Virus record (IMG/VR): IMGVR_UViG_2684622669_000020
DNA from: a virus
Lineage: Duplodnaviria > Heunggongvirae > Uroviricota > Caudoviricetes
Direction: 5' to 3' (one strand)
Length of the DNA stretch: 34,356 bases
Shown here: positions 2,850 through 33,335 of the stretch, in pieces
How positions within the stretch are numbered: position 1 is the first letter of the stretch
How the letters are laid out: every line of letters starts with the position of its first letter
Notes under the pieces: model-generated
The model's input: the letters and a program-made list of their open reading frames with translations, nothing else
Told to the model about the DNA's origin: nothing
Databases searched by the model: none
Translations under genes and position numbers: made by a program

Positions 2850-3929
2850 TCACCCCTCACGTGGAAAAGGCTGAATATCAATATTTCCCGGGCGCAGCCA
2901 TTCCCACGTTGACGCGTTAATAATGGCTTTTACGTTGTCTGCTGGCGTAATGATTCGCCGGTCACTGACACCGGAAATTAATGAAATCTGGGTTTCCAGT
3001 TGTGAAATAATTAATTCTTGCCCCGGCTCCAGTCGGTTCATAAAATCCGTGATAACGTCAGTTATCTGCGGTTTTATCTGCTCAACGGTCAGGCCGCTGG
3101 TTTTTACCCGGACAACGAAATCAACGGCTTTTTTCGTCGGGGCCAGCACCATCGTGTCCTTCGCCGTCACCGGGCGAACTTCCTCAATATGTGCCAGCAC
3201 GGCATTAATCAGTTCCTGCGAGGGGAGGTCATTGGCTGACGTAATGGCCACATCAACCGTTCCCAGTCCACGACGCAATGGCTCCACATATGCCGAGGTA
3301 ACGCCATCCACTTCCAGCGCCCAGCGTTTGTAATCATATTTGTTACCGCCAGCGGGTGGCCTGCGCAGAATATCCAGATAACGCGCCAGCAGGTCGGCGT
3401 CACTTTCCCTGTCCGTTCCGCCAGTCAGGGATTTAATCGTCACCGTGCTGTTGATGCCTTCCGGCGGACTGACCAGCGTTGCCGTCTGCGTTGTGGATAC
3501 GTTCGTCTGTGCGCCCGTGGTGGTGCTTTTTACCGTCACCTCCGCGCTGCCTTCATCACCGATGGTGCAGTCTGCGGTGGTGGCCACGCTGACACCTTCA
3601 CCGCGAATTTCCGCACCGGCTGGCAGCATCTTACCGGGGGTACCGGTAATCACCACCGGACCGGATGAGGCTGTTGCTTTTTTACGAAAAACATTGCGCG
3701 TGCGGCAGTGCAGCTCCAGATATTCAGGGTCTGCCGTGTCAGGAAACACCTGACGGAGGATCCACCCCTGATGCATATAAAGCCCGTCCGCCACGCCGGA
3801 TACGGCATTGGCACGAATGCGGTAATCGCTGTCAGCGCCGGTGTCGATGGTTTCTCCCGGCAGGGCGTTAGCGATATCACGTAGCTGGCGTTCTGTGTTT
3901 TCAGCAACGCCCGGAACAGGAAACGGCAT
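2850..3929 (-). CDS. Baseplate J-like protein (Mu gp47-like)
   Basis: 359-aa ORF in conserved baseplate position; start overlaps upstream stop. Confidence 0.75.
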   Translation of the reverse strand: MPFPVPGVAENTERQLRDIANALPGETIDTGADSDYRIRANAVSGVADGLYMHQGWILRQVFPDTADPEYLELHCRTRNVFRKKATASSGPVVITGTPGKMLPAGAEIRGEGVSVATTADCTIGDEGSAEVTVKSTTTGAQTNVSTTQTATLVSPPEGINSTVTIKSLTGGTDRESDADLLARYLDILRRPPAGGNKYDYKRWALEVDGVTSAYVEPLRRGLGTVDVAITSANDLPSQELINAVLAHIEEVRPVTAKDTMVLAPTKKAVDFVVRVKTSGLTVEQIKPQITDVITDFMNRLEPGQELIISQLETQISLISGVSDRRIITPADNVKAIINASTWEWLRPGNIDIQPFPREG

Positions 3930-4279
3930 TACATAATCCTCACAGGGTGTTCAAACGTCTGCGGTGTGCCCGCGTTATCCGTGACGGTGATTAGCAGCAA
4001 CAACCAGCCGCGCTGCCCCGTTTTTGTGTCAACGGTAATTGCTGTCGCCCGCCCGTCATCGAGCAGGGGCTGAAGTGCCTGGCTGGCATACTGCGCCGCC
4101 AGCCTGTGGACACGGGAAACGTCTTTTTCCCGCTTCAGTTCGTGCAGGCGTGACCCCAGCGACGCATCCGCCCAGTAACTGCCAAGCGGCGTCGCCAGTC
4201 GCAGATAAACCGCGTTATGAAGTGTATAAATCCGGCGGCGTTCGTAGTCGCCGGTTGCAGGTGAAATCGTCTGGTCCAT
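3929..4279 (-). CDS. Baseplate protein (Mu gp46-like)
   Basis: 116-aa ORF, ATG at 4279-4277 (MDQTIS); conserved position between spike and J-like genes. Confidence 0.6.
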   Translation of the reverse strand: MDQTISPATGDYERRRIYTLHNAVYLRLATPLGSYWADASLGSRLHELKREKDVSRVHRLAAQYASQALQPLLDDGRATAITVDTKTGQRGWLLLLITVTDNAGTPQTFEHPVRIM

Positions 4280-4317
4280 GCCGCCAGTCTGGCAGCATGG
4301 ACAGGTCAGAATCAGGT

Positions 4318-4332
4318 GAGGGTGTTCAGCAC
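4318..4332 (-). promoter_or_regulatory. Copy C of repeated late-promoter-like element
   Basis: GAGGGTGTTCAGCAC matches the core of the elements at 16205-16237 and 23629-23662; lies in the 53-bp gap between the gp45-like stop (4333) and gp46-like start (4279). Confidence 0.35.
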
Positions 4333-4986
4333 TTAATTATGCGGCAGGCCGGATATGCCGTGAGGGGTATCGTGTTTGTGTGTTCCGATTTTAACGCCAT
4401 TAATGGTGACGTCAACGGAGGTAATCACACCACCCACATGGTTGATGTTGCCTTCAAAAGTGGCGGCGTATTCCTTGCCTCCACGGATGGCCATGCCACC
4501 GTTGCCGGTGATTTTACCTTCCACCGTCAGCTTATCGCTGGCCGTCAGTAACGGTGTCGTGAATGCGGCGTTCTCCTCTGCCTCAACCTCATAGCGTTTG
4601 CATTTCACCCGGTAAATGTCACATTCTGTTTCAATAATCCGCCCGCGCTTCAGCACAATTTTCGCGCCTTCGTCGGTATACAGGGCCACCTCGCCGGGTT
4701 TCAGTTCCGTCAGGCGATATGCGCCGTGCTCGGTGGCCACGACGACGGTATGGGAGGTATTACCGTTCAGCGGAACGGCAATACCCATTGAGCCGGGCGG
4801 CGGGGATGTGGTGAGGCCGTAATGCTGAAAATACTCCGCACCGTCCAGCTGTTCGCCTGCCAGCCCGTTCAGCTGAAGCAACTGCACTTTGGTCGAACTG
4901 TCCACCGTACCGGTCACCACCCTGAATGCCTGGCGAACGGCGGCCAGTGCCTGCTGTATGCGCTGATTAACCTTGTCCCACATCAT
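4333..4986 (-). CDS. Baseplate spike / gpV-like protein (Mu gp45-like)
   Basis: 217-aa ORF downstream of the baseplate hub gene; beta-rich sequence typical of spike proteins. Confidence 0.65.
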   Translation of the reverse strand: MMWDKVNQRIQQALAAVRQAFRVVTGTVDSSTKVQLLQLNGLAGEQLDGAEYFQHYGLTTSPPPGSMGIAVPLNGNTSHTVVVATEHGAYRLTELKPGEVALYTDEGAKIVLKRGRIIETECDIYRVKCKRYEVEAEENAAFTTPLLTASDKLTVEGKITGNGGMAIRGGKEYAATFEGNINHVGGVITSVDVTINGVKIGTHKHDTPHGISGLPHN

Positions 4987-6194: not shown

Positions 6195-7527
6195 TAATTA
6201 CCATCCCGGCGGTTATGTTGTTCGGGTCACGCAGCTGCGGGTTCAGGCGTTGCAGCTCTGCCGCACGGCTGTAGTCCCCGTACCACTGCCACGCCAGCAA
6301 CAGCAGACAGCTGTCCGCCTGCACCTGCTTCTGTGTCAGCGGTGGGCGGCGTGACAGAACCAGCAGGCCGACATCCTGCACGGATGCCGCCACGTTCTTC
6401 ATGCTCTGAATGATTTCCGGGTACATCAGCCCCAGTGGTGATGCGGTTTCGGTTATCCGTTCGCGTTCGCCTTCATAGCGTTCACGGAACAGCGTGATGG
6501 CGGCCTGTAAGCGGGTGCGCACATCCCCGACCAGTCGCCCGATATCCGCCGGTATAAGCTGTTCTGACTGGGCTTCATCGGACAGTATCACCGTCGCCAC
6601 GCTGGCCAGCTCTGAGGCCGCCAGAACCGCATAAGCCGCTTTCACGTCCTGCACGTCTTCCACGGACGCATCCGGCGGAAGTGCCACAGACGGCGTTTTA
6701 TCACCGCTGACCAGTGCGACCGGCAGCGCGACCAGCTCATCCATATCTGCCATCACCTCATTCCAGCAGGTCATCACGGTCGCAGAACTGGCGACGCGGT
6801 TTTCTCCGGTCAGTCCGGTCGTGGTGGCGGAATCAGTACGCTCCAGCACCGGCACCGCGTGCCCGACATCTGACGTGTGGATTTCCAGCACCTCTGCCAG
6901 CCCGCCGATGAACTTTCCGGGTTCGCTGGCCAGTGACATCATATTGTCGATGGATGAGAGAAAATCGCTTTTGAACGTCAGCAGGGTATTTACCAGCGTG
7001 GCACGCACCGCCTGGATTTTTTTAATCACGCTGTTAATGGTCTTTAAAGGGGCCGTAACAGCGTCAAATAATTCGCTTAACTGTGCCAGTAACTTATCCA
7101 GTTCATCAAATAACTGTTGTGCGAACAGCTCCGGTAACGGGGTGCTGAACAACGCGCTGCCGGTGCGGTTCTCCAGAAAACTCATGTCGATGGTGCAGCT
7201 GTCCGGGCTTTCTGCGTCATGGCGGATGCTGTAGCCGGTCACAATCACCGACGGTACGGAGCCATAAACCGGGTGAATCAGCTCACCATCGCCGCCTTCG
7301 TCCAGGGCGGCGATCAGCTTTTCAAGTTTATATTCGTAATACTCCCCCCACAGGAACGCCGTCATGCGAAACGGTCGCGCCTTGCGTCCGAGGTCGTGCA
7401 AATCCGCCCCGTCAACAAACGGGTATTCATAGACCGCATGGTCGCGGCTGATTTGTTCATCCGTGTTCAGTACATCAAACTGCACGCCACGAAAGGAGGC
7501 GTTTTGCAGGTTTTCAGCCCAGCCCAT
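6178..7527 (-). CDS. DNA circulation protein (Mu N / gp43-like)
   Basis: 449 aa; N-terminus MGWAENLQNASFRGVQFDV typical of the Mu DNA circulation N-terminal domain; follows tape measure. Confidence 0.75.
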   Translation of the reverse strand: MGWAENLQNASFRGVQFDVLNTDEQISRDHAVYEYPFVDGADLHDLGRKARPFRMTAFLWGEYYEYKLEKLIAALDEGGDGELIHPVYGSVPSVIVTGYSIRHDAESPDSCTIDMSFLENRTGSALFSTPLPELFAQQLFDELDKLLAQLSELFDAVTAPLKTINSVIKKIQAVRATLVNTLLTFKSDFLSSIDNMMSLASEPGKFIGGLAEVLEIHTSDVGHAVPVLERTDSATTTGLTGENRVASSATVMTCWNEVMADMDELVALPVALVSGDKTPSVALPPDASVEDVQDVKAAYAVLAASELASVATVILSDEAQSEQLIPADIGRLVGDVRTRLQAAITLFRERYEGERERITETASPLGLMYPEIIQSMKNVAASVQDVGLLVLSRRPPLTQKQVQADSCLLLLAWQWYGDYSRAAELQRLNPQLRDPNNITAGMVINAYAK

Positions 7528-13400: not shown

Positions 13401-13742
13401 TTACTTCTCCTTTTTGTCCGCTTTTTGTGTTTTCTGTGCGGCGTTCAGCTGTGCGGTCAGTTCACTGACTTTCTGGCGTTCTTCTTCCAGCTGCGCCGTC
13501 AGTTCGCTGACTTTCTGGCGTTCGGCATCCAGCTGTGCGACCAGCTCATCACCCCGGGCCGCGTCGTTCTGGCCGGACGCTTTATCACGCTCCACCACAA
13601 TCAGCATGGGGTCCGCCTTCAGCACCGCCAGCTGTTCCGGGGTGAACGCATCCGCAGGCCATTCCTTCGTGGTTGCGCTGTGTGCCACACCGCAGCGGCG
13701 AAAACCCTCACGGCGGGCGGTAATTTCAATCACCTTTTCCAT
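13401..13742 (-). CDS. Head-region protein with coiled-coil tandem repeat
   Basis: 113-aa ORF containing DAERQKVSELTAQL / EEERQKVSELTAQL, encoded by a 42-bp tandem repeat. Confidence 0.6.
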   Translation of the reverse strand: MEKVIEITARREGFRRCGVAHSATTKEWPADAFTPEQLAVLKADPMLIVVERDKASGQNDAARGDELVAQLDAERQKVSELTAQLEEERQKVSELTAQLNAAQKTQKADKKEK

Positions 13743-15060: not shown

Positions 15061-16185
15061 TTATTTGTCTCCTGCGTAACGGGCGACATCCTCTGGATCA
15101 ACGCCCATCATTGAACAAATGGCGATATCGACATCGACGTCATCGCCGGTTTTAATCTGCGCCGGAGCCGGTGACGGCGTTTTGGGTGGTTTGCCGCCGG
15201 TCTGGGTGCTGCTGAGTGCGGCAAGCGGGGTGGTTTTATCCAGCCAGGTTTTAAAACCGTTAATATCGCGACGAGCGTAATCTTTCGCCCAGTCTTCCAG
15301 CGTCGGAAGCAGTCGCCCGTCAGACAGCGCCGCCTGAATCAGTGCCCCGGCTTCGGCCTCACCGGACTGTTGCGCCAGTACGGCATAACGTCCCTGAAGT
15401 TCTTCATATGCCGTCAGAGGGATATGCTTCGTCGGGTCATAGGCATTTGCTGACAGGCTGGCGATTTGCTCGTCTTTCTGATTCAGCAGGGCCAGCAGGC
15501 CAACAGAAGCCGCTGCCGTTCCTTTGCCACCGGAAATAGCATCAATAATTTTTTGCAGTTCATTTTTAATGTCTTCCGGCGTTGAGGTTGCCGGGAGGTT
15601 CAGCGTCCAGCGCAGACTGGACAGCAAATCGCTTAACAGTTCTTCATCCACTGTTGTGGTCTCCGTTTCAGTTGACAGACTCGCCAGACGGCTGGCCGCA
15701 GCCAGCATGACCGCGTCCATACCGTCGAGCGCCGGGGTATTGGTCAGCGCAGCATGTAACAGCTCCAGCACTTCGCCGCGCTTGTTGTAGGCAAAAACAG
15801 GGGAAATAAATTTGTACTCACCGGCGGCAATCATGGCCGCCGCGTTCTCCGTCCACTCCACACCAGTGGCATACAGGCCCGCACCTTCTCGCCATTCCAC
15901 CTGGCTGAACCAGCCCGCCGCCGGGGCGGGCTTGCCGTTGTTTACGGCGCGCAGCGTCTGATGTTCGTAATCAATGACAAATGGCGTGGTACGGGCTGCC
16001 ACCTGGGCGACAAGCTGCGCGGCCAGTTCAGCGGTCAGCACCCATTTACCGCTTTCGACTTCATCGGTATGTGGGCGACCATCCACCGCGCTGAACTCGC
16101 CCGCCGGAAACAGCTGGATTTCGCTGTGGGTTGCTTTGGTAATTTCGAGGCTTAATGCCGCAATGTTCATTTTCATACGCGGCAT
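15061..16185 (-). CDS. Head maturation protease/scaffold (Mu I-like)
   Basis: Family resemblance to Mu I. The track start at 16230 is GTG and overlaps the promoter-like motif, so start moved to the first ATG (16185); ATGs at 16176 and 16170 are also possible and none has a clear SD. Confidence 0.75.
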   Translation of the reverse strand: MPRMKMNIAALSLEITKATHSEIQLFPAGEFSAVDGRPHTDEVESGKWVLTAELAAQLVAQVAARTTPFVIDYEHQTLRAVNNGKPAPAAGWFSQVEWREGAGLYATGVEWTENAAAMIAAGEYKFISPVFAYNKRGEVLELLHAALTNTPALDGMDAVMLAAASRLASLSTETETTTVDEELLSDLLSSLRWTLNLPATSTPEDIKNELQKIIDAISGGKGTAAASVGLLALLNQKDEQIASLSANAYDPTKHIPLTAYEELQGRYAVLAQQSGEAEAGALIQAALSDGRLLPTLEDWAKDYARRDINGFKTWLDKTTPLAALSSTQTGGKPPKTPSPAPAQIKTGDDVDVDIAICSMMGVDPEDVARYAGDK

Positions 16186-16204
16186 GATGACGGAAGGGGA
16201 ACAC

Positions 16205-16237
16205 GGGGTACTGTTGAGGGTGTTCAGCACCCCGCCA
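16205..16237 (-). promoter_or_regulatory. Copy A of repeated late-promoter-like element (upstream of I)
   Basis: GGGGTACTGTTGAGGGTGTTCAGCACCCCGCCA; nearly identical to 23629-23662 and sharing a 15-bp core with 4318-4332; ends about 20 nt upstream of the first ATG of the I-like gene. Confidence 0.45.
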
Positions 16238-16268
16238 TAACGCGAAAGGATAAAAGGGGAAATAAAAC

Positions 16269-16293
16269 CGTTTTTAAAACCCTTTTAAAAACG
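16269..16293 (-). terminator. AT-rich perfect palindrome in the G-I intergenic region (possible terminator)
   Basis: CGTTTTTAAAA-CCC-TTTTAAAAACG, 11-bp perfect arms; on the minus strand it is followed by GGTTTTATTT and precedes the promoter-like motif. Confidence 0.4.
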
Positions 16294-16385
16294 ATTCTGG
16301 CGGTATTTATGGGGTGCGGTGCTGTAATGCCTCATCCGTGAGGCGTTTATGTCGTCAGAGTCGATTACAGCGCGTTTGTGGTCAT

Positions 16386-16937
16386 TCAGTCAATCACACG
16401 CGCAAAATAGCGGTTTGCGGTGTTCTCCAGCTCGTCGATGTCGTCCTGCACAAGCTGAAGGAAGGGGCGCGCGGGCATGTTGACTGTATACGCTCCCACT
16501 GTTGCGCTCTGCACAAAATTACTGTTGCGCTTTTTCACAAAGCGGGTGCTGACGCTGCCGTTTTTGTACTGTTTAAAATACAGGTTCTGCGTCCGTGCCT
16601 GATGGCGGATTTCGCCGCCTTCGTTGTGGATACGGGCGTAACGGACGTTTGTCCCGACCGCGGCCTCGTTATTGTTAACCGCAGAGCGGATACTGGCAGC
16701 CAGTCGCCCGGACTTCTGAAGGATTTGCCCGGGGCCGCGTCGCTTCGCATAAGCCGGACTCCAGCCCATCCATTTCGGGCGACCCTGTTGTTCAAAGTTA
16801 GTCTCAACCGCATCCAGCATGGAACCCGCAAGCGCCGTCATCAGGTCGCGCCGGTCCTTCACGGAACGAATCAGTTTCCCCAGCGTGGTGTTATACGCGC
16901 TTAAATCAATCTTAATATCCAGTTTACCGCTGCTCAT
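16386..16937 (-). CDS. Virion morphogenesis protein (Mu G-like)
   Basis: 183-aa ORF directly after the F-like gene, start overlapping its stop. Confidence 0.7.
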   Translation of the reverse strand: MSSGKLDIKIDLSAYNTTLGKLIRSVKDRRDLMTALAGSMLDAVETNFEQQGRPKWMGWSPAYAKRRGPGQILQKSGRLAASIRSAVNNNEAAVGTNVRYARIHNEGGEIRHQARTQNLYFKQYKNGSVSTRFVKKRNSNFVQSATVGAYTVNMPARPFLQLVQDDIDELENTANRYFARVID

Positions 16938-23495: not shown

Positions 23496-23628
23496 GAGTT
23501 TCTCCTGTAAATCTGAGCCACTGACGGCCCGTAAATAACACCCTGTCAAAGGCACAGAAGCCTTTTGCAGGGCGCTATCCCTTAAGGTGCCTTGTGGTCT
23601 GAGTGGACAGGGTAAATGGTCTGGTGTG

Positions 23629-23672
23629 GTGGGTACTGCTGGGGGTGTTCAGCACCCCGCCACGGCGGGGTG
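23629..23672 (-). promoter_or_regulatory. Copy B of repeated late-promoter-like element (upstream of lysis cassette) with embedded inverted repeat
   Basis: TGGGTACTGCTGGGGGTGTTCAGCACCCCGCCA (23629-23662), two mismatches from copy A; includes perfect inverted repeat CACCCCGCC-ac-GGCGGGGTG at 23653-23672. Confidence 0.45.
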
Positions 23673-23677
23673 ATAAA

Positions 23678-23956
23678 TCAGAAGCGGGAAAGGGAATCCG
23701 GCGTAATAAGAGGTTTATTGCAAAGCGGAGCAGAGGCGTTAGCCTTTTCCATCGCTGCGCGCATCTCGTTTTCGCTGGCGATGATGTCAGCAATGGCACA
23801 CTGCAACGCTTCTTCCTGAACAACCATATCCGGTTGTTCGGCCATTCGGTTTAGCTGGCTGGCCAGATTTTTCATATAAGCGAAGCGGCGTCCGGCAGCA
23901 TCCCGGGCCTGCTCTGAGTAGGCCGTATACTCGCCAAGTGCCGTATAGTTGGTCAT
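23678..23956 (-). CDS. Hypothetical protein between activator gene and lysis promoter
   Basis: 92-aa ORF with AGGAG 6 nt upstream of ATG 23956; lies downstream of the terminator overlapping the activator gene. Confidence 0.6.
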   Translation of the reverse strand: MTNYTALGEYTAYSEQARDAAGRRFAYMKNLASQLNRMAEQPDMVVQEEALQCAIADIIASENEMRAAMEKANASAPLCNKPLITPDSLSRF

Positions 23957-23980: not shown

Positions 23981-24448
23981 TTAATCAAAAAGCCCCACCT
24001 GGGTGGGGCTTTTCAGCGAAGTCTGTTTTTGTCGTCGGTGTATCAGCTGCCATGCATACCTGTCTGAAATCCCGTAACGGGGACAGAGCAGTGCCAGCGC
24101 CTGCCGGTGTGAGCATCCGTCTTTTACATGCTGCTGTAAATCAGCCATAAAACGGGTGTTACGCAGGGCACGTAACGCATGATCGCAACGGGGAATGTAA
24201 AACGGAGCACCGCCAAGAAAGCGGATCAGTTTGTTGATTTCGTCTTCGGTCAGCACATCATGTAACAGGGCATGGACGCCGCCGGTGCGTTCAGCGTGTG
24301 CGCCGGTTTTACCGCTTAACGTCACGCCACCAAAAGAACGGATTAACCGGGTCAGGGCGGGGAAGCCAATCACGCTAATCAGTTGTTGCACGGAGTCGGG
24401 CAGCAGTGCCTGCGCATCGCGAAGATCTGTTTCACTGAAGGTCTGCAT
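23981..24448 (-). CDS. Mor/C-family transcriptional activator (probable late-gene activator)
   Basis: 155 aa; C-terminal region GGAPFYIPRCDHALRALRNTRF...GISDRYAWQLIHRRQ fits the Mor/C-family DNA-binding region; sits between early genes and the lysis/late block. Confidence 0.75.
   Translation of the reverse strand: MQTFSETDLRDAQALLPDSVQQLISVIGFPALTRLIRSFGGVTLSGKTGAHAERTGGVHALLHDVLTEDEINKLIRFLGGAPFYIPRCDHALRALRNTRFMADLQQHVKDGCSHRQALALLCPRYGISDRYAWQLIHRRQKQTSLKSPTQVGLFD
23992..24013 (-). terminator. Intrinsic terminator overlapping the 3-prime end of the activator gene
   Basis: Minus strand GCCCCACC-ca-GGTGGGGC followed by TTTTTGATTAA; the stem and T-run encode the last residues SPTQVGLFD and the stop. 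Confidence 0.6.
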
Positions 24449-24490
24449 GATGGCGTCTCCGGTAGTAACTTACTGTTATTATAGCCATAC
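24449..24490 (-). promoter_or_regulatory. Candidate promoter for the activator gene (consensus -10, poor -35)
   Basis: Minus-strand TATAAT at 24483-24478, about 29 nt upstream of ATG 24448, with GGAG between; no good TTGACA at the -35 position. Confidence 0.4.
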
Positions 24491-24510: not shown

Positions 24511-24536
24511 CAAAAAAGCCCCTGCAAGGCAGAGGC
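24511..24536 (-). terminator. Intrinsic terminator after the GemA-like gene
   Basis: Minus strand GCCTCTGC-ctt-GCAGGGGC (one G-U pair) followed by TTTTTTG, a few nt after the stop at 24544-24546. Confidence 0.55.
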
Positions 24537-24543
24537 TGATTCT

Positions 24544-24957
24544 TTATTGTTTACGTGCTGCTCTGGCTCGTTTTCTGGCGTCTTTTGTCAGCGCCACCAT
24601 CACCCCGAACAGTTGATCATCTGTCAGCCATTCGATCACATGTTGCTTATACATGTGAGATGCCAGTCCTTCCGCATACGCCCAGGAACGACCGGCATCA
24701 GCCAGCAACGCTTCAATTTTGGATAATACTGATTTTCTGCTCATTGCAACACGGGGGCGGCGACCTTGACCGGCGGGTGCCTTGCGCGGAAATCCCTGTT
24801 CGTGCATGTATTCCCGGATGATGCGCAGTTCATCGAGGTTGCAGCGTGTGGTGCTGGTTTTACCGGTCAGGCGGGCCAGCGTCTGGCGATAAAGGACATC
24901 ATCCCACCCCAGATACGCCTGACCGGTTTTAATGGCTCTGATCATCTTTTTCAGCAT
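24544..24957 (-). CDS. gemA: GemA-like early regulatory protein (Mu gp16 family)
   Basis: Start moved to ATG 24957 (GAGGAT upstream); MLKKMIRAIKTGQAYLGWDDVLYRQTLARLTGKTSTTRCNLDELRIIREYMHEQGF matches the GemA-family pattern as I recall it. Confidence 0.65.
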   Translation of the reverse strand: MLKKMIRAIKTGQAYLGWDDVLYRQTLARLTGKTSTTRCNLDELRIIREYMHEQGFPRKAPAGQGRRPRVAMSRKSVLSKIEALLADAGRSWAYAEGLASHMYKQHVIEWLTDDQLFGVMVALTKDARKRARAARKQ

Positions 24958-25243
24958 GTTTGTTATCCTCAAAACGCACGGTAAAACGTGAAACGCCAAT
25001 CCCTGACAGGAACGCAGCGGCACGGTCAAGAGACAGCCACGTCTTGTAATCGCCACGGCGTTCCTGTAGAAAATAGGACACCCCGGCGCGACGATTCACA
25101 GCAAAGAGGTGATACACACCACCGAACCGCTGCACGACGAACTCATCCACGCCACCGCTTTCAGCCTGTTGCCTGAAAGCTGCCATTCCGATTTGTTCAA
25201 TCTTCATAATGACCAAAACATCACTTTTGGCAGACCAAAACAC
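24929..25243 (-). CDS. Hypothetical protein
   Basis: 104-aa ORF; track start is GTG, first ATG is 25207, neither has a clear SD. Confidence 0.4.
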   Translation of the reverse strand: MFWSAKSDVLVIMKIEQIGMAAFRQQAESGGVDEFVVQRFGGVYHLFAVNRRAGVSYFLQERRGDYKTWLSLDRAAAFLSGIGVSRFTVRFEDNKHAEKDDQSH

Positions 25244-31259: not shown

Positions 31260-33335
31260 TTAACGGTTGTTTGTGCCGTCTTTCTTTAAATTGCGGTCAC
31301 GCTCGGATGCAAAGAAATAAAGTTCTTCTTTTTTCTTTTCCTCCTTACGCTCCAGACCAAATCCAAAATTAAAGTCAGGTCTCTGCGTAATAGCCGGGGT
31401 AAGCTCGCGTTTAGCCTCTTCGATTTTCTGCGTGGCCCGTGCAATGCGGCCTCTGGCGCGTTTCTCCTGCTGCTGTTCGATAACAGCTTTCGGGAACGCA
31501 TCAACCTTATTACCGTTCCAGATGGCATCGCAGATATAAGAACCGTCCATCCGCCTGACAATCACGCTGTTTGCGTCGTGAATGTCGTAACAAACCCTGA
31601 CTTCATTTCCGTGCTCTGCTGCCAGTTCTGTGGAGAAATAGATGTTTCTGAATAACACCACTTCACCGCGTCGCACCGTGCAGATGCTTTCCGGTCGGAA
31701 CATTTCATGCAGTTCTTCCGGCGACAGCATGTCGATTTCAGCCTTTTGCTCTTTTATCAGTTTCCGGCGATACGCTGCCGGGCTGTAATGTTCGCCATCC
31801 TCTTTGCGGGGAAGGCTGCTGTGTGGCCGGTTGTTATACCGTTTCACCTCCAGCTCTATTGCGGCCATCAGTTGCTCAAAAGTGGGGACTTCTCCCATCG
31901 CTTTAACCTGCCGCTTTGTCAGCTCTTTCCCTTTGTGGGTGGCCTTAATGGCTGACTGTGTGATGCGTTGCTGCATCATCACCGTTTCCTTGTCTGCATT
32001 TTTTGAGCAGTACGTCTGGAAACTCAGGGCCACATCTTTGGGTATTCCTTTGTTTGCCCGTTCTATTACCCCGCGCCCCTGCGGGTTACCAGGTATCCCC
32101 GTGTGATGCTCCACACCCAGCCGGGGCAGAATCCCGGTAATATCGGCATCAAGCACCCGGTTTTTTTCACCGCCCCCGTTATCGGAGTAATAAATCAGCG
32201 GTATTCCGTGTTGTGACATGCCATGACGCAATGCATCAGCAACGGCTATCACGTTCTCCGACAGGGACAGCGACCAGCCCACAATAAAGCGTTGCCCCGC
32301 ATCCATAACCAGCGTCACTTCTGGCCGGAATGTATTCCCGGTGGCAGGGTTGAATGCCATCAGTTTCATACAGTGACCATCCCCGACCCATACCGCATTA
32401 ACCGGTAATGTGCTCCAGTCGCGCCGCACAAAGGGATTGAGCGAACGCCAGGCTGAGCCGGTGGAGCGGAAACGCTCCTTAACAATCACCGGGACGTTGC
32501 TTAACACCCGTCTTACTGCGTGAACTGAAGGCAGTGCTGCCAGCATTCCCGCATCGTTCGCGTGTTTTTCATGCCACCAGGCTGAAAACTCGCGATACGC
32601 ATATTCAACGGTCGGGCGCTTCCATGAGCGATAGAACATAAAGAAATCGCTCAACCACCAGACCTGCTCCCACGGTGTTCCCTTATGATGACCGGGAGCC
32701 AGTAACGCCAGTAACTGATTGGCATCACCGCGCGCCATCAGCCAGGCGGAATACCATTCCTGTAAACTCCCTGTACTGACGCCAGTTCGCTTACCCTGTC
32801 GGGCATTGGCGGTATTACCGGCCACAATAACGCGCTCGGGCAAAGCCCCCTGGCGGATACCATCAACGATGTGTTTTATCGCTGCTGTCCTGGACATTCC
32901 TGCGTATTCACGCAGTTTATGCACTTCGGTAGCCAGCAATATCCGCGCATCAGCGATGGCCTTTTGCTTGTCGGTCAGTGCCTGAACTTCGCGTAATGCC
33001 AGTTCCGGGCATTTGACCATCACTTCCAGTTCATCGCGAATGGTGACGTTCTTAACTGCCTTCTGCTCAACCACGGCGGGCAGTTGCGCATCTTCCAGAA
33101 CCTGATGGGTCAGGCGTTGACGTAAAACCTTCTGAACATCTTTAGGTAAACTGGATATATGGTACTCATATATTTTCCCCTGAACTCCAGACTTCCTTCT
33201 TCTTGTCCAGTTCGCTCGTTTAGCTTTTTGAGTGATCCCCTGTACAGTTTTCGGTAGCCCTTGAAGCCCTGTTAGTTCATTCAACGTAAACCATTCAGGT
33301 TCGAACTTGACTTCATAGTCGTTGTTCTTATTCAT
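31260..33335 (-). CDS. A: DDE transposase (MuA-like)
   Basis: 691 aa; N-terminal domain resembles the repressor N-terminus (LxGLxGLPxTxQGIxQKAKRxxW); central integrase-like catalytic region; followed by B. Confidence 0.9.
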   Translation of the reverse strand: MNKNNDYEVKFEPEWFTLNELTGLQGLPKTVQGITQKAKRANWTRRRKSGVQGKIYEYHISSLPKDVQKVLRQRLTHQVLEDAQLPAVVEQKAVKNVTIRDELEVMVKCPELALREVQALTDKQKAIADARILLATEVHKLREYAGMSRTAAIKHIVDGIRQGALPERVIVAGNTANARQGKRTGVSTGSLQEWYSAWLMARGDANQLLALLAPGHHKGTPWEQVWWLSDFFMFYRSWKRPTVEYAYREFSAWWHEKHANDAGMLAALPSVHAVRRVLSNVPVIVKERFRSTGSAWRSLNPFVRRDWSTLPVNAVWVGDGHCMKLMAFNPATGNTFRPEVTLVMDAGQRFIVGWSLSLSENVIAVADALRHGMSQHGIPLIYYSDNGGGEKNRVLDADITGILPRLGVEHHTGIPGNPQGRGVIERANKGIPKDVALSFQTYCSKNADKETVMMQQRITQSAIKATHKGKELTKRQVKAMGEVPTFEQLMAAIELEVKRYNNRPHSSLPRKEDGEHYSPAAYRRKLIKEQKAEIDMLSPEELHEMFRPESICTVRRGEVVLFRNIYFSTELAAEHGNEVRVCYDIHDANSVIVRRMDGSYICDAIWNGNKVDAFPKAVIEQQQEKRARGRIARATQKIEEAKRELTPAITQRPDFNFGFGLERKEEKKKEELYFFASERDRNLKKDGTNNR

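Follow-up and report, generated by a model that had tools for sequence, protein, structure and literature searches.

Introduction

The late promoters of bacteriophage Mu (Plys, PI, PP, and Pmom) are served by a phage-encoded activator of the Mor/C family. These promoters contain -10 hexamers and lack -35 hexamers, and the binding site of the C protein is a 16-bp imperfect dyad that is centred at -43.5 and overlaps the -35 region (PMC2582627). The Mor-dependent promoter Pm involves the same protein family and the same dyad position, the Mor site being a 16-bp element centred at -43.5 (PMC4390567). In Mu the two activators form a relay in which Mor precedes C, and Pm drives the gene of this next activator.

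In this study we analysed a stretch of 34,356 nt, referred to as the window, which is a Mu-like E. coli prophage with all genes on the minus strand. A sequence-only reading had proposed that a conserved element upstream of its lysis cassette and of the head gene I represents activator-dependent late promoters. Our results lead us to assign a probability of about 0.78 to the interpretation that the element marks three activator-dependent sigma-70 late promoters, which we named P_lys, P_I, and P_gp46. The predicted late regulation is of the Mu type and thus ordinary in kind; its recognition sequence differs from that of Mu and is new in detail.

Results

The genes and predicted elements of the window are listed in Table 1. 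In 54 of 5426 complete E. coli genomes there is a prophage that matches the central 10 kb with 90-99% identity, and a megablast search of deposited phages revealed no close DNA relative, except for a 540-bp match in two Yersinia phages. The element itself was matched in 55 of the 5426 genomes, at one or two places each and at every place in unannotated DNA, a distribution that rules out a host interspersed repeat of the REP/BIME type. The genomes with a match include EPEC E2348/69, whose place, the only one inspected, lies in a prophage of the same family.

Table 1. Genes and predicted regulatory elements of the window, in gene order
Feature	Position	Strand	Remarks
Transposase A	33335..31260	-	followed by B and early genes
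GemA	25056..24544	-	5' of the Mor-family gene
Gene of 155-aa Mor/C-family protein, presumed late activator	23981..24448	-	Pfam PF08765, 29.1 bits (cut-off 24.9)
orf92 (92-aa ORF)	23956..23678	-	between activator gene and lysis genes
GC-rich hairpin CACCCCGCC-GT-GGCGGGGTG	23653..23672	-	directly after orf92; overlaps upstream edge of P_lys site
P_lys, predicted activator site	23638..23653	-	GCTGAA-CACC-CCCAGC; predicted -51..-36; 24.9 bits
P_lys, -10-like hexamer TACCCT	23609..23614	-	predicted +1 near 23602
Two holins and GH108 endolysin	from 23495	-	followed by terminase, portal, F, G
Gene G	16937..16386	-	last gene before I
P_I, predicted activator site	16213..16228	-	GCTGAA-CACC-CTCAAC; predicted -51..-36; top matrix score, 29.8 bits
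P_I, -10-like hexamer CATCAT	16184..16189	-	predicted -12..-7; 23 bp after dyad
P_I, predicted +1 (16177/16176) and ATG of I (16176-16174)	16174..16177	-	hexamer and dyad-centre geometry agree
Protease I	16176..15061	-	followed by head and tail genes, tape measure, N, P
gp45	4986..4333	-	directly before gp46
P_gp46, predicted activator site	4315..4330	-	GCTGAA-CACC-CTCACC; predicted -51..-36; 26.3 bits; between gp45 stop (4333) and gp46 start (4279)
Hairpin GUCCAUGCUGCC-AGACU-GGCGGCAUGGAC	4274..4302	-	encloses -10 hexamer and gp46 start codon
P_gp46, -10-like hexamer CAGACT	4286..4291	-	predicted +1 at 4279, the A of the gp46 ATG
gp46 (baseplate)	4279..3929	-	followed by baseplate and fibre genes

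The sequence-only reading had described a repeat of about 34 bp that occurs in two copies with two mismatches. This repeat is real, as 30 of 32 bases are identical between 16206-16237 and 23631-23662 (2 differences), but it is 32 nt rather than 34 nt long and its coordinates had to be shifted by 1-2 nt. In 100 dinucleotide-preserving shuffles, no 32-nt repeat with up to three mismatches was found. On the plus strand the block reads GGGTACTG(T/C)TG(A/G)GGGTGTTCAGCACCCCGCCA; since the genes are all located on the minus strand, its functional form has to be read as the reverse complement, TGGCGGGGTGCTGAACACCC(T/C)CA(A/G)CAGTACCC. A third copy, initially recognised as a 15-bp core at 4318-4332, is also real and proved to be more than a core: the 16 nt TGAGGGTGTTCAGCAC at 4317-4332 are common to it and the I copy, and it scored as a full site in the matrix scan described below. 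The three copies are located in the G-I gap, in the gap between orf92 and the first holin gene, and between gp45 and gp46. The lys copy lies ~107 nt upstream of the holin ATG, and the I and gp46 copies end ~30 nt before the respective start codons. The first reading is thus refined by a smaller predicted functional core, by the minus-strand orientation, and by a third full putative promoter, the one before gp46.

Related phages were collected via the activator protein at 99, 83, 66, 56-53, and 49% identity, and the corresponding contigs were fetched. A search with a single-protein locus gave only near-identical prophages, and the diversity of the collection comes from the homologue search and the contig look-ups. 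Homologues of gp46, the Klebsiella phage ST405-OXA48phi1.1 (activator 41% identical), and the Haemophilus phage SuMu (34%) were added. We then aligned 23 sites, which come from the window, from relatives in Escherichia, Salmonella, Serratia, Xenorhabdus, Aeromonas, and Yersinia, and from a Klebsiella phage; as these sites are partly orthologous, their counts are not fully independent. Outside Yersinia, the activators behind these sites are 41-100% identical to that of the window.

The unit conserved across these relatives is a 16-bp imperfect dyad, GCTGAA-N4-YTCARC, which is followed 23 bp further on by a -10-like hexamer, NAnnnT. The hexamer, which takes the form [T/C/A]AnnnT, was present at the fixed distance in 23 of the 23 sites. 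Invariance is confined to CTGAA, to the C in TCA, and to two hexamer positions, its A and its T, and the flanks vary. With the hexamer set to -12..-7 and +1 inferred from it, the dyad extends from -51 to -36 and is centred at -43.5. In the sigma-70 -10 element, positions -11 (here A) and -7 (here T) are the most important ones. In one relative, an Aeromonas prophage (L148), the dyad is perfect (GCTGAA-CCCC-TTCAGC), and in the window the right half-site is degenerate, with four of six matches to TTCAGC.

All three -10-like hexamers of the window are poor matches to TATAAT (2-3/6), and the assignment of start sites therefore rests on geometry. The -35 hexamers at the window sites (AGTACC, AGTACC, and TGATTC) have only one or two of six bases in common with TTGACA, and at these sites scoring gave neither a sigma-70 consensus promoter nor a terminator. 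As far as it can be derived from hexamer and dyad, the geometry of the element is that published for the C- and Mor-dependent promoters of Mu. The proposal of late promoters thus gained computational support from a conserved 16-bp dyad, a -10-like hexamer at fixed distance, the lack of a -35 hexamer, and positions like those of Plys and PI.

The P_lys site is kept upstream of the lysis genes in relatives, even in those with different holin and endolysin types, and its predicted leader of ~107 nt ends at the holin ATG with a Shine-Dalgarno sequence AGGAGA at 23501-23506. The site at the gp45-gp46 junction is kept in four of the collected relatives (L001, L149, L150, and L151), in the Klebsiella phage, and in SuMu. 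In the case of gene I, the start annotated by PGAP in a close relative is at the corresponding position. A sigma-54 or ECF-type reading of TGGC...GCTG/GAAC was considered and discarded by inspection, as the spacings do not fit.

The specificity of the motif was analysed with a weight matrix built only from 12 sites outside the window. A scan of the window with this matrix gave exactly three sites, all on the gene strand, with the scores listed in Table 1; the next match in the window reached 12.3 bits, and the maximum in shuffled windows was 20.4 bits. The close relative L001 also contains exactly three sites, and no sites were found in Mu and SuMu (in Mu none of at least 14 bits). Furthermore, the hexamer was present at the fixed offset in all 15 of 15 sites, compared to 13 of 163 other occurrences of CTGAA[CG] in the relatives. 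As an independent test, the dyad alone was searched in 2.9 million viral contigs, which resulted in 98 usable matches. Fifteen of them adjoin homologues of I, gp46, or the activator gene; 14 of these 15 are positioned directly upstream, and the hexamer was present in 14 of 14. In other contexts the hexamer accompanied 10 of 83 matches, which is approximately the chance level, and these matches lie mostly within coding sequences of unrelated GC-rich phages. Of the computational tests able to distinguish an activator-dependent promoter from a generic repeat or an RNA hairpin, all favoured the promoter.

The sequence-only reading had further placed a Mor/C-family gene at 23981-24448. This assignment was confirmed by the Pfam match (Table 1) and by a match to PHROG 836, "late transcriptional activator", with an E value of 1e-42. 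The gene occupies the position of C in Mu, shortly upstream of the lysis cassette, and a second Mor/C-like gene was not found in the window. The 155-aa protein is only remotely similar to Mu C and Mor, with ~27% identity over 78 residues, and has the FYIPR linker in common with them. A phmmer search of the PDB gave an E value of 0.4, and a profile search of the PDB for this protein is circular. The AlphaFold model has a pLDDT of 81, and fold searches with it returned only generic helix-turn-helix matches. As structures of the family we take the Mor crystal structure 1RR7 and that of C in 9L0X.

The site sequence changes along with the activator. At the same three genome positions, the upstream half-site is GCTGAA where the activator is at least 45% identical to that of the window, ACTGAA in the Klebsiella phage (41%), and GTGGAA...TTCCTC in SuMu (34%); the series ends with TTAT...ATAA of Mu C. 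The dyads of SuMu and of the Klebsiella phage have the spacing of the window dyads, and the SuMu site, GTGGAA-N4-TTCCTC, differs from GCTGAA-N4-YTCARC. These results agree with the earlier suggestion of a distinct activator-site pair, as the Mu C-box sequence is absent from the window and the half-site is altered in phages with more distant activators. The Mu C box proper, c(C/A)ATAACCCC at -42..-33 with TTAT...ATAA half-sites, was rejected as a description of the window sites, which read GCTGAACACCC. An alignment of CTGAACCCC with the Mu CATAACCCC box was rejected as well; it matches at seven of nine positions, but lies 10 bp further upstream. The actual correspondence with Mu is that of the 16-bp dyad.

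From the repeat, its conservation pattern, geometry, and positions, and its co-occurrence with the activator subfamily we infer activator binding, activator dependence, and the exact transcript starts. In the proposed mechanism, the 155-aa protein would be made from an early or middle transcript and would bind the dyad at -43.5 via its C-terminal helix-turn-helix domains, thereby replacing the missing -35 contact and recruiting the host sigma-70 RNA polymerase. P_lys would drive the genes from holin and endolysin through terminase and portal to G, P_I the head and tail genes, and P_gp46 the baseplate wedge and tail-fibre genes. As the window contains a single Mor-family activator gene, the cascade would lead from the early genes via the activator to the late genes, without the separate Mor step of Mu.

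It is also conceivable, though unlikely, that the sites are late promoters or operators that are read by another factor, such as the product of orf92, a different early protein, a host factor, or an occluding repressor. The orf92 product (phrog_7152, E value 2e-42) belongs to a family of unknown function, and its gene is kept between the activator gene and P_lys in most of the relatives examined. Moreover, the link between the 155-aa protein and the sites is one of co-occurrence alone, and the fold searches did not go beyond the generic helix-turn-helix matches mentioned above. However, Mor/C activators are characterised by just this combination of a 16-bp dyad at -43.5 and no -35 hexamer, and the half-site diverges in parallel with the Mor-family protein. 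Phages with a different early-gene content keep both the site and a Mor-family protein, and the Xenorhabdus, Aeromonas, and SuMu relatives keep the sites although they have no orf92-sized gene at this position. In the E. coli, Salmonella, and some other relatives, orf92 separates the activator gene from P_lys; its product is a possible co-factor and could even be the true binder of the sites.

A further explanation is that the element acts as a nucleic-acid hairpin, formed either by GGGGUG-CUGAA-CACCCC or by the longer GGGGUGCUG...CAGUACCCC, and serves as a terminator, attenuator, processing site, or stability element. The I and lys copies fold somewhat better than shuffled sequences (z scores of -2.5 and -2.1), and in some close relatives the lys copy has arms of 12 bp. 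In addition, an unrelated phage family has the same 16-mer as the stem of a genuine intrinsic terminator. Against this explanation, pairing of the palindrome over the 23 sites was found in 47% of the cells compared to 45% in shuffles (89 of 500 shuffles reached this level), and the gp46 copy does not fold (z score of -0.4). The flanks of the element vary already among close relatives, where GGGGTG/CACCCC is in some cases extended to the 12-bp arms and in several others broken by a change of CACCC to CTCCC. The invariant bases of the element would form the loop of the hairpin, and the invariant A and T of the hexamer 23 bp downstream would be left unexplained. Finally, neither strand has a T-run after the element, no terminator was scored at either full copy, and Rfam gave no match in the window. 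We therefore regard a hairpin function as very improbable, and the GGGGTG/CACCCC palindrome, which is not conserved, was dismissed as a functional unit and considered a local feature.

An exact search of viral contigs with the 16-mer of the window palindrome, GGGGTGCTGAACACCC, gave 120 matches, most of them unrelated. About 26 of the contigs (L036 at 6660-6700, L013, L014, L024, and others) represent a family of AT-rich metagenomic phages; there the 16-mer on the gene strand is the stem-loop of the ordinary intrinsic terminator GGGGGTGTTCAGCACCCCC+TTTTATTT, a case of convergence rather than homology.

The least credible explanation is a non-regulatory remnant, left by recombination at module boundaries or by recent gene conversion between intergenic regions: both full copies are at boundaries of module swaps, as illustrated by the holin and endolysin types, which differ among relatives downstream of the lys copy, and the window copies share more flank (TGGCGGGGT, CAGTACCC) than the family consensus needs, which suggests some homogenisation in this lineage, but a fixed dyad core, fixed hexamer A and T, and a fixed spacing, always on the gene strand, represent a functional footprint, and the third copy is situated within the conserved baseplate module.

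If the element is read as a set of activator-dependent promoters, two of the predicted start sites have an unusual position. Two independent rulers, the -10 hexamer and the dyad centre, agreed in placing +1 either on the start codon or one base ahead of it for both I and gp46, and no Shine-Dalgarno sequence was found upstream of these two starts. Counted from the dyad G, the start codon of I follows after 51-52 nt and that of gp46 after 50-51 nt. This spacing was constant among all enterobacterial relatives examined and recurred in 13 additional viral contigs (7 for I and 6 for gp46), and the bases in between vary. An ATG at the predicted +1/+2 without a Shine-Dalgarno sequence was seen for I in 8 phages (by eye) and 7 contigs, and for gp46 in 7 phages and 6 contigs. 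The gp46 gene of SuMu keeps the arrangement with the start codon at the predicted +1, and gene I has an ordinary leader in both Mu and SuMu.

Moreover, a hairpin (Table 1) encloses the gp46 start codon together with the -10 hexamer, with a calculated energy of -24.9 kcal/mol and a z score of -5.5. It was present in six of the six phages examined. All 11 pairs were kept in four of five sequences and 10 of 11 in the fifth, and one double compensatory change was observed, in which the start codon changed from ATG to GTG and the other arm from T to C. On the sense strand the hairpin contains G.U wobble pairs. In contrast, RNA structure around the start codon of I is weak and inconsistent across the relatives.

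The hairpin pairs -23..-12 with -6..+6 and would therefore mask the gp46 start codon in RNA that reads through from P_I. A transcript from P_gp46 starting at +1 would lack the 5' arm, so that its AUG would be free; this suggests leaderless late mRNAs and an unmasking of the gp46 start that depends on the promoter. How much of the baseplate-wedge and fibre proteins is translated would then be set by which promoter made the RNA and not by the amount of RNA. We offer it as a tentative idea, more doubtful than the promoters themselves, that in this enterobacterial lineage of Mu-like phages the P_I and P_gp46 transcripts are leaderless, starting with the A of AUG, and that gp46 translation is gated by the promoter of origin. 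In the Klebsiella phage the gp46 start is GTG, which argues against efficient leaderless translation in that phage.

A known leaderless phage mRNA is that of lambda cI transcribed from PRM. Like the transcripts predicted here, it starts with the A of AUG and has no Shine-Dalgarno sequence. The window differs in that late structural genes and an activator-dependent promoter are concerned and in that gp46 adds a hairpin covering the AUG. In the literature searched we found no description of leaderless late mRNAs in Mu-like phages. If the idea is correct, leaderless starts and the gp46 hairpin would constitute a post-transcriptional layer of late-gene control that is undescribed for Mu.

Discussion

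For a direct comparison, the four late promoters of Mu were read from the annotated Mu record. Their -10 hexamers (TAGACT, CAAACT, TATCCT, and TAAGAT) are of the same weak NAnnnT type as those of the window, and the dyad of Pmom, ATTATG-CCCC-AATAAC, resembles the GCTGAA-CCCC-TTCAGC of the relatives in its 6-4-6 layout and C-rich centre. The promoters of Mu and those predicted in the window phage are located before the lysis genes, before I, and, as a third one, inside the tail/baseplate block. In the window phage the third one is predicted before gp46, two genes downstream of the position of PP in Mu, and a mom promoter, which is present in Mu, is absent. The half-sites are GCTGAA/TTCAGC in the window family and TTAT/ATAA with a conserved CATAACCCC in Mu, and the invariant half-site is the upstream one in the former and the downstream one in the latter. 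PI of Mu has a ~26-nt leader with a Shine-Dalgarno sequence, whereas in the window I and gp46 start at the predicted +1/+2.

The GC-rich hairpin at P_lys, which has no T-run and no terminator score, also has counterparts in Mu. At Pm, a GC-rich hairpin of the upstream unit likewise abuts or overlaps the site, and at Plys a terminator abuts the promoter. Pm drives the gene of a second activator, C, whereas the sites of the window would drive structural and lysis genes directly, with one activator in place of the Mor-then-C relay.

A site before a second activator gene was found only in a Xenorhabdus relative and in one viral contig. The Xenorhabdus relative (L146, 5240-5330) has two Mor-family paralogues, in the positions of Mor and C, and both L146 and the viral contig L161 (at 3241) carry ACTGAA-CCCC-TTCAAC and an AATACT hexamer before the second paralogue. 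This arrangement suggests that relatives with two paralogues run a relay of the Mor-to-C style and that the window phage has one tier.

The activators of PHROG 836 in SuMu, in Mannheimia phage 3927AP2, and in the Pseudomonas D3112/MP22 group are 31-41% identical to the window protein, and the literature searched yielded no published description of the sites of PHROG 836 phages. We therefore offer GCTGAA-N4-YTCARC at -43.5 as the putative operator consensus of this widespread and unstudied subfamily of Mor/C activators. Its prophages occur in E. coli (including EPEC E2348/69), Salmonella, Serratia, Xenorhabdus, Aeromonas, and Klebsiella, and a Yersinia prophage contributed gp46-promoter sites. 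The promoter geometry of Mu appears to be kept while recognition drifts from CTGAA to TGGAA and TTAT/ATAA, and this series may provide natural material for the study of specificity in the newly solved complexes of Mor/C with RNA polymerase. With the consensus it should also become possible to annotate the late operons of Mu-like prophages on the basis of their sequence alone.

Several further features were noticed during the analysis. Upstream of the activator gene there is a perfect TATAAT at 24478-24483 (-), which is accompanied neither by a -35 hexamer nor by a CTGAA dyad; it may serve the activator gene as a middle-type promoter. GemA is followed at 24512-24536 (-) by an intrinsic terminator, GCCTCTGC-CTT-GCAGGGGC+TTTTTT. 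Within the 3' end of gp45 there is a sigma-70-like sequence, TTGACG-16-TAAAAT (10/12), at 4388-4415 (-); it is positioned ~60 nt upstream of the gp46 site and may be due to chance.

In the G-I intergenic region, at 16237-16386 (-), AACGCGCTGTAAT is conserved across relatives just after the G stop codon, as is an AT-rich palindrome, CGTTTTTAAAAGGGTTTTAAAAACG, at ~16269-16293. The pattern TTTTTAAA...TTTAAA of this gap also occurs in Mu, and the Mu record annotates a strong gyrase site in the same gap, of which the palindrome region of the window may be the equivalent. Finally, within a coding region of the head-gene block, three tandem direct repeats of 42 nt, which are ~72-86% identical, were observed at 13436-13548.
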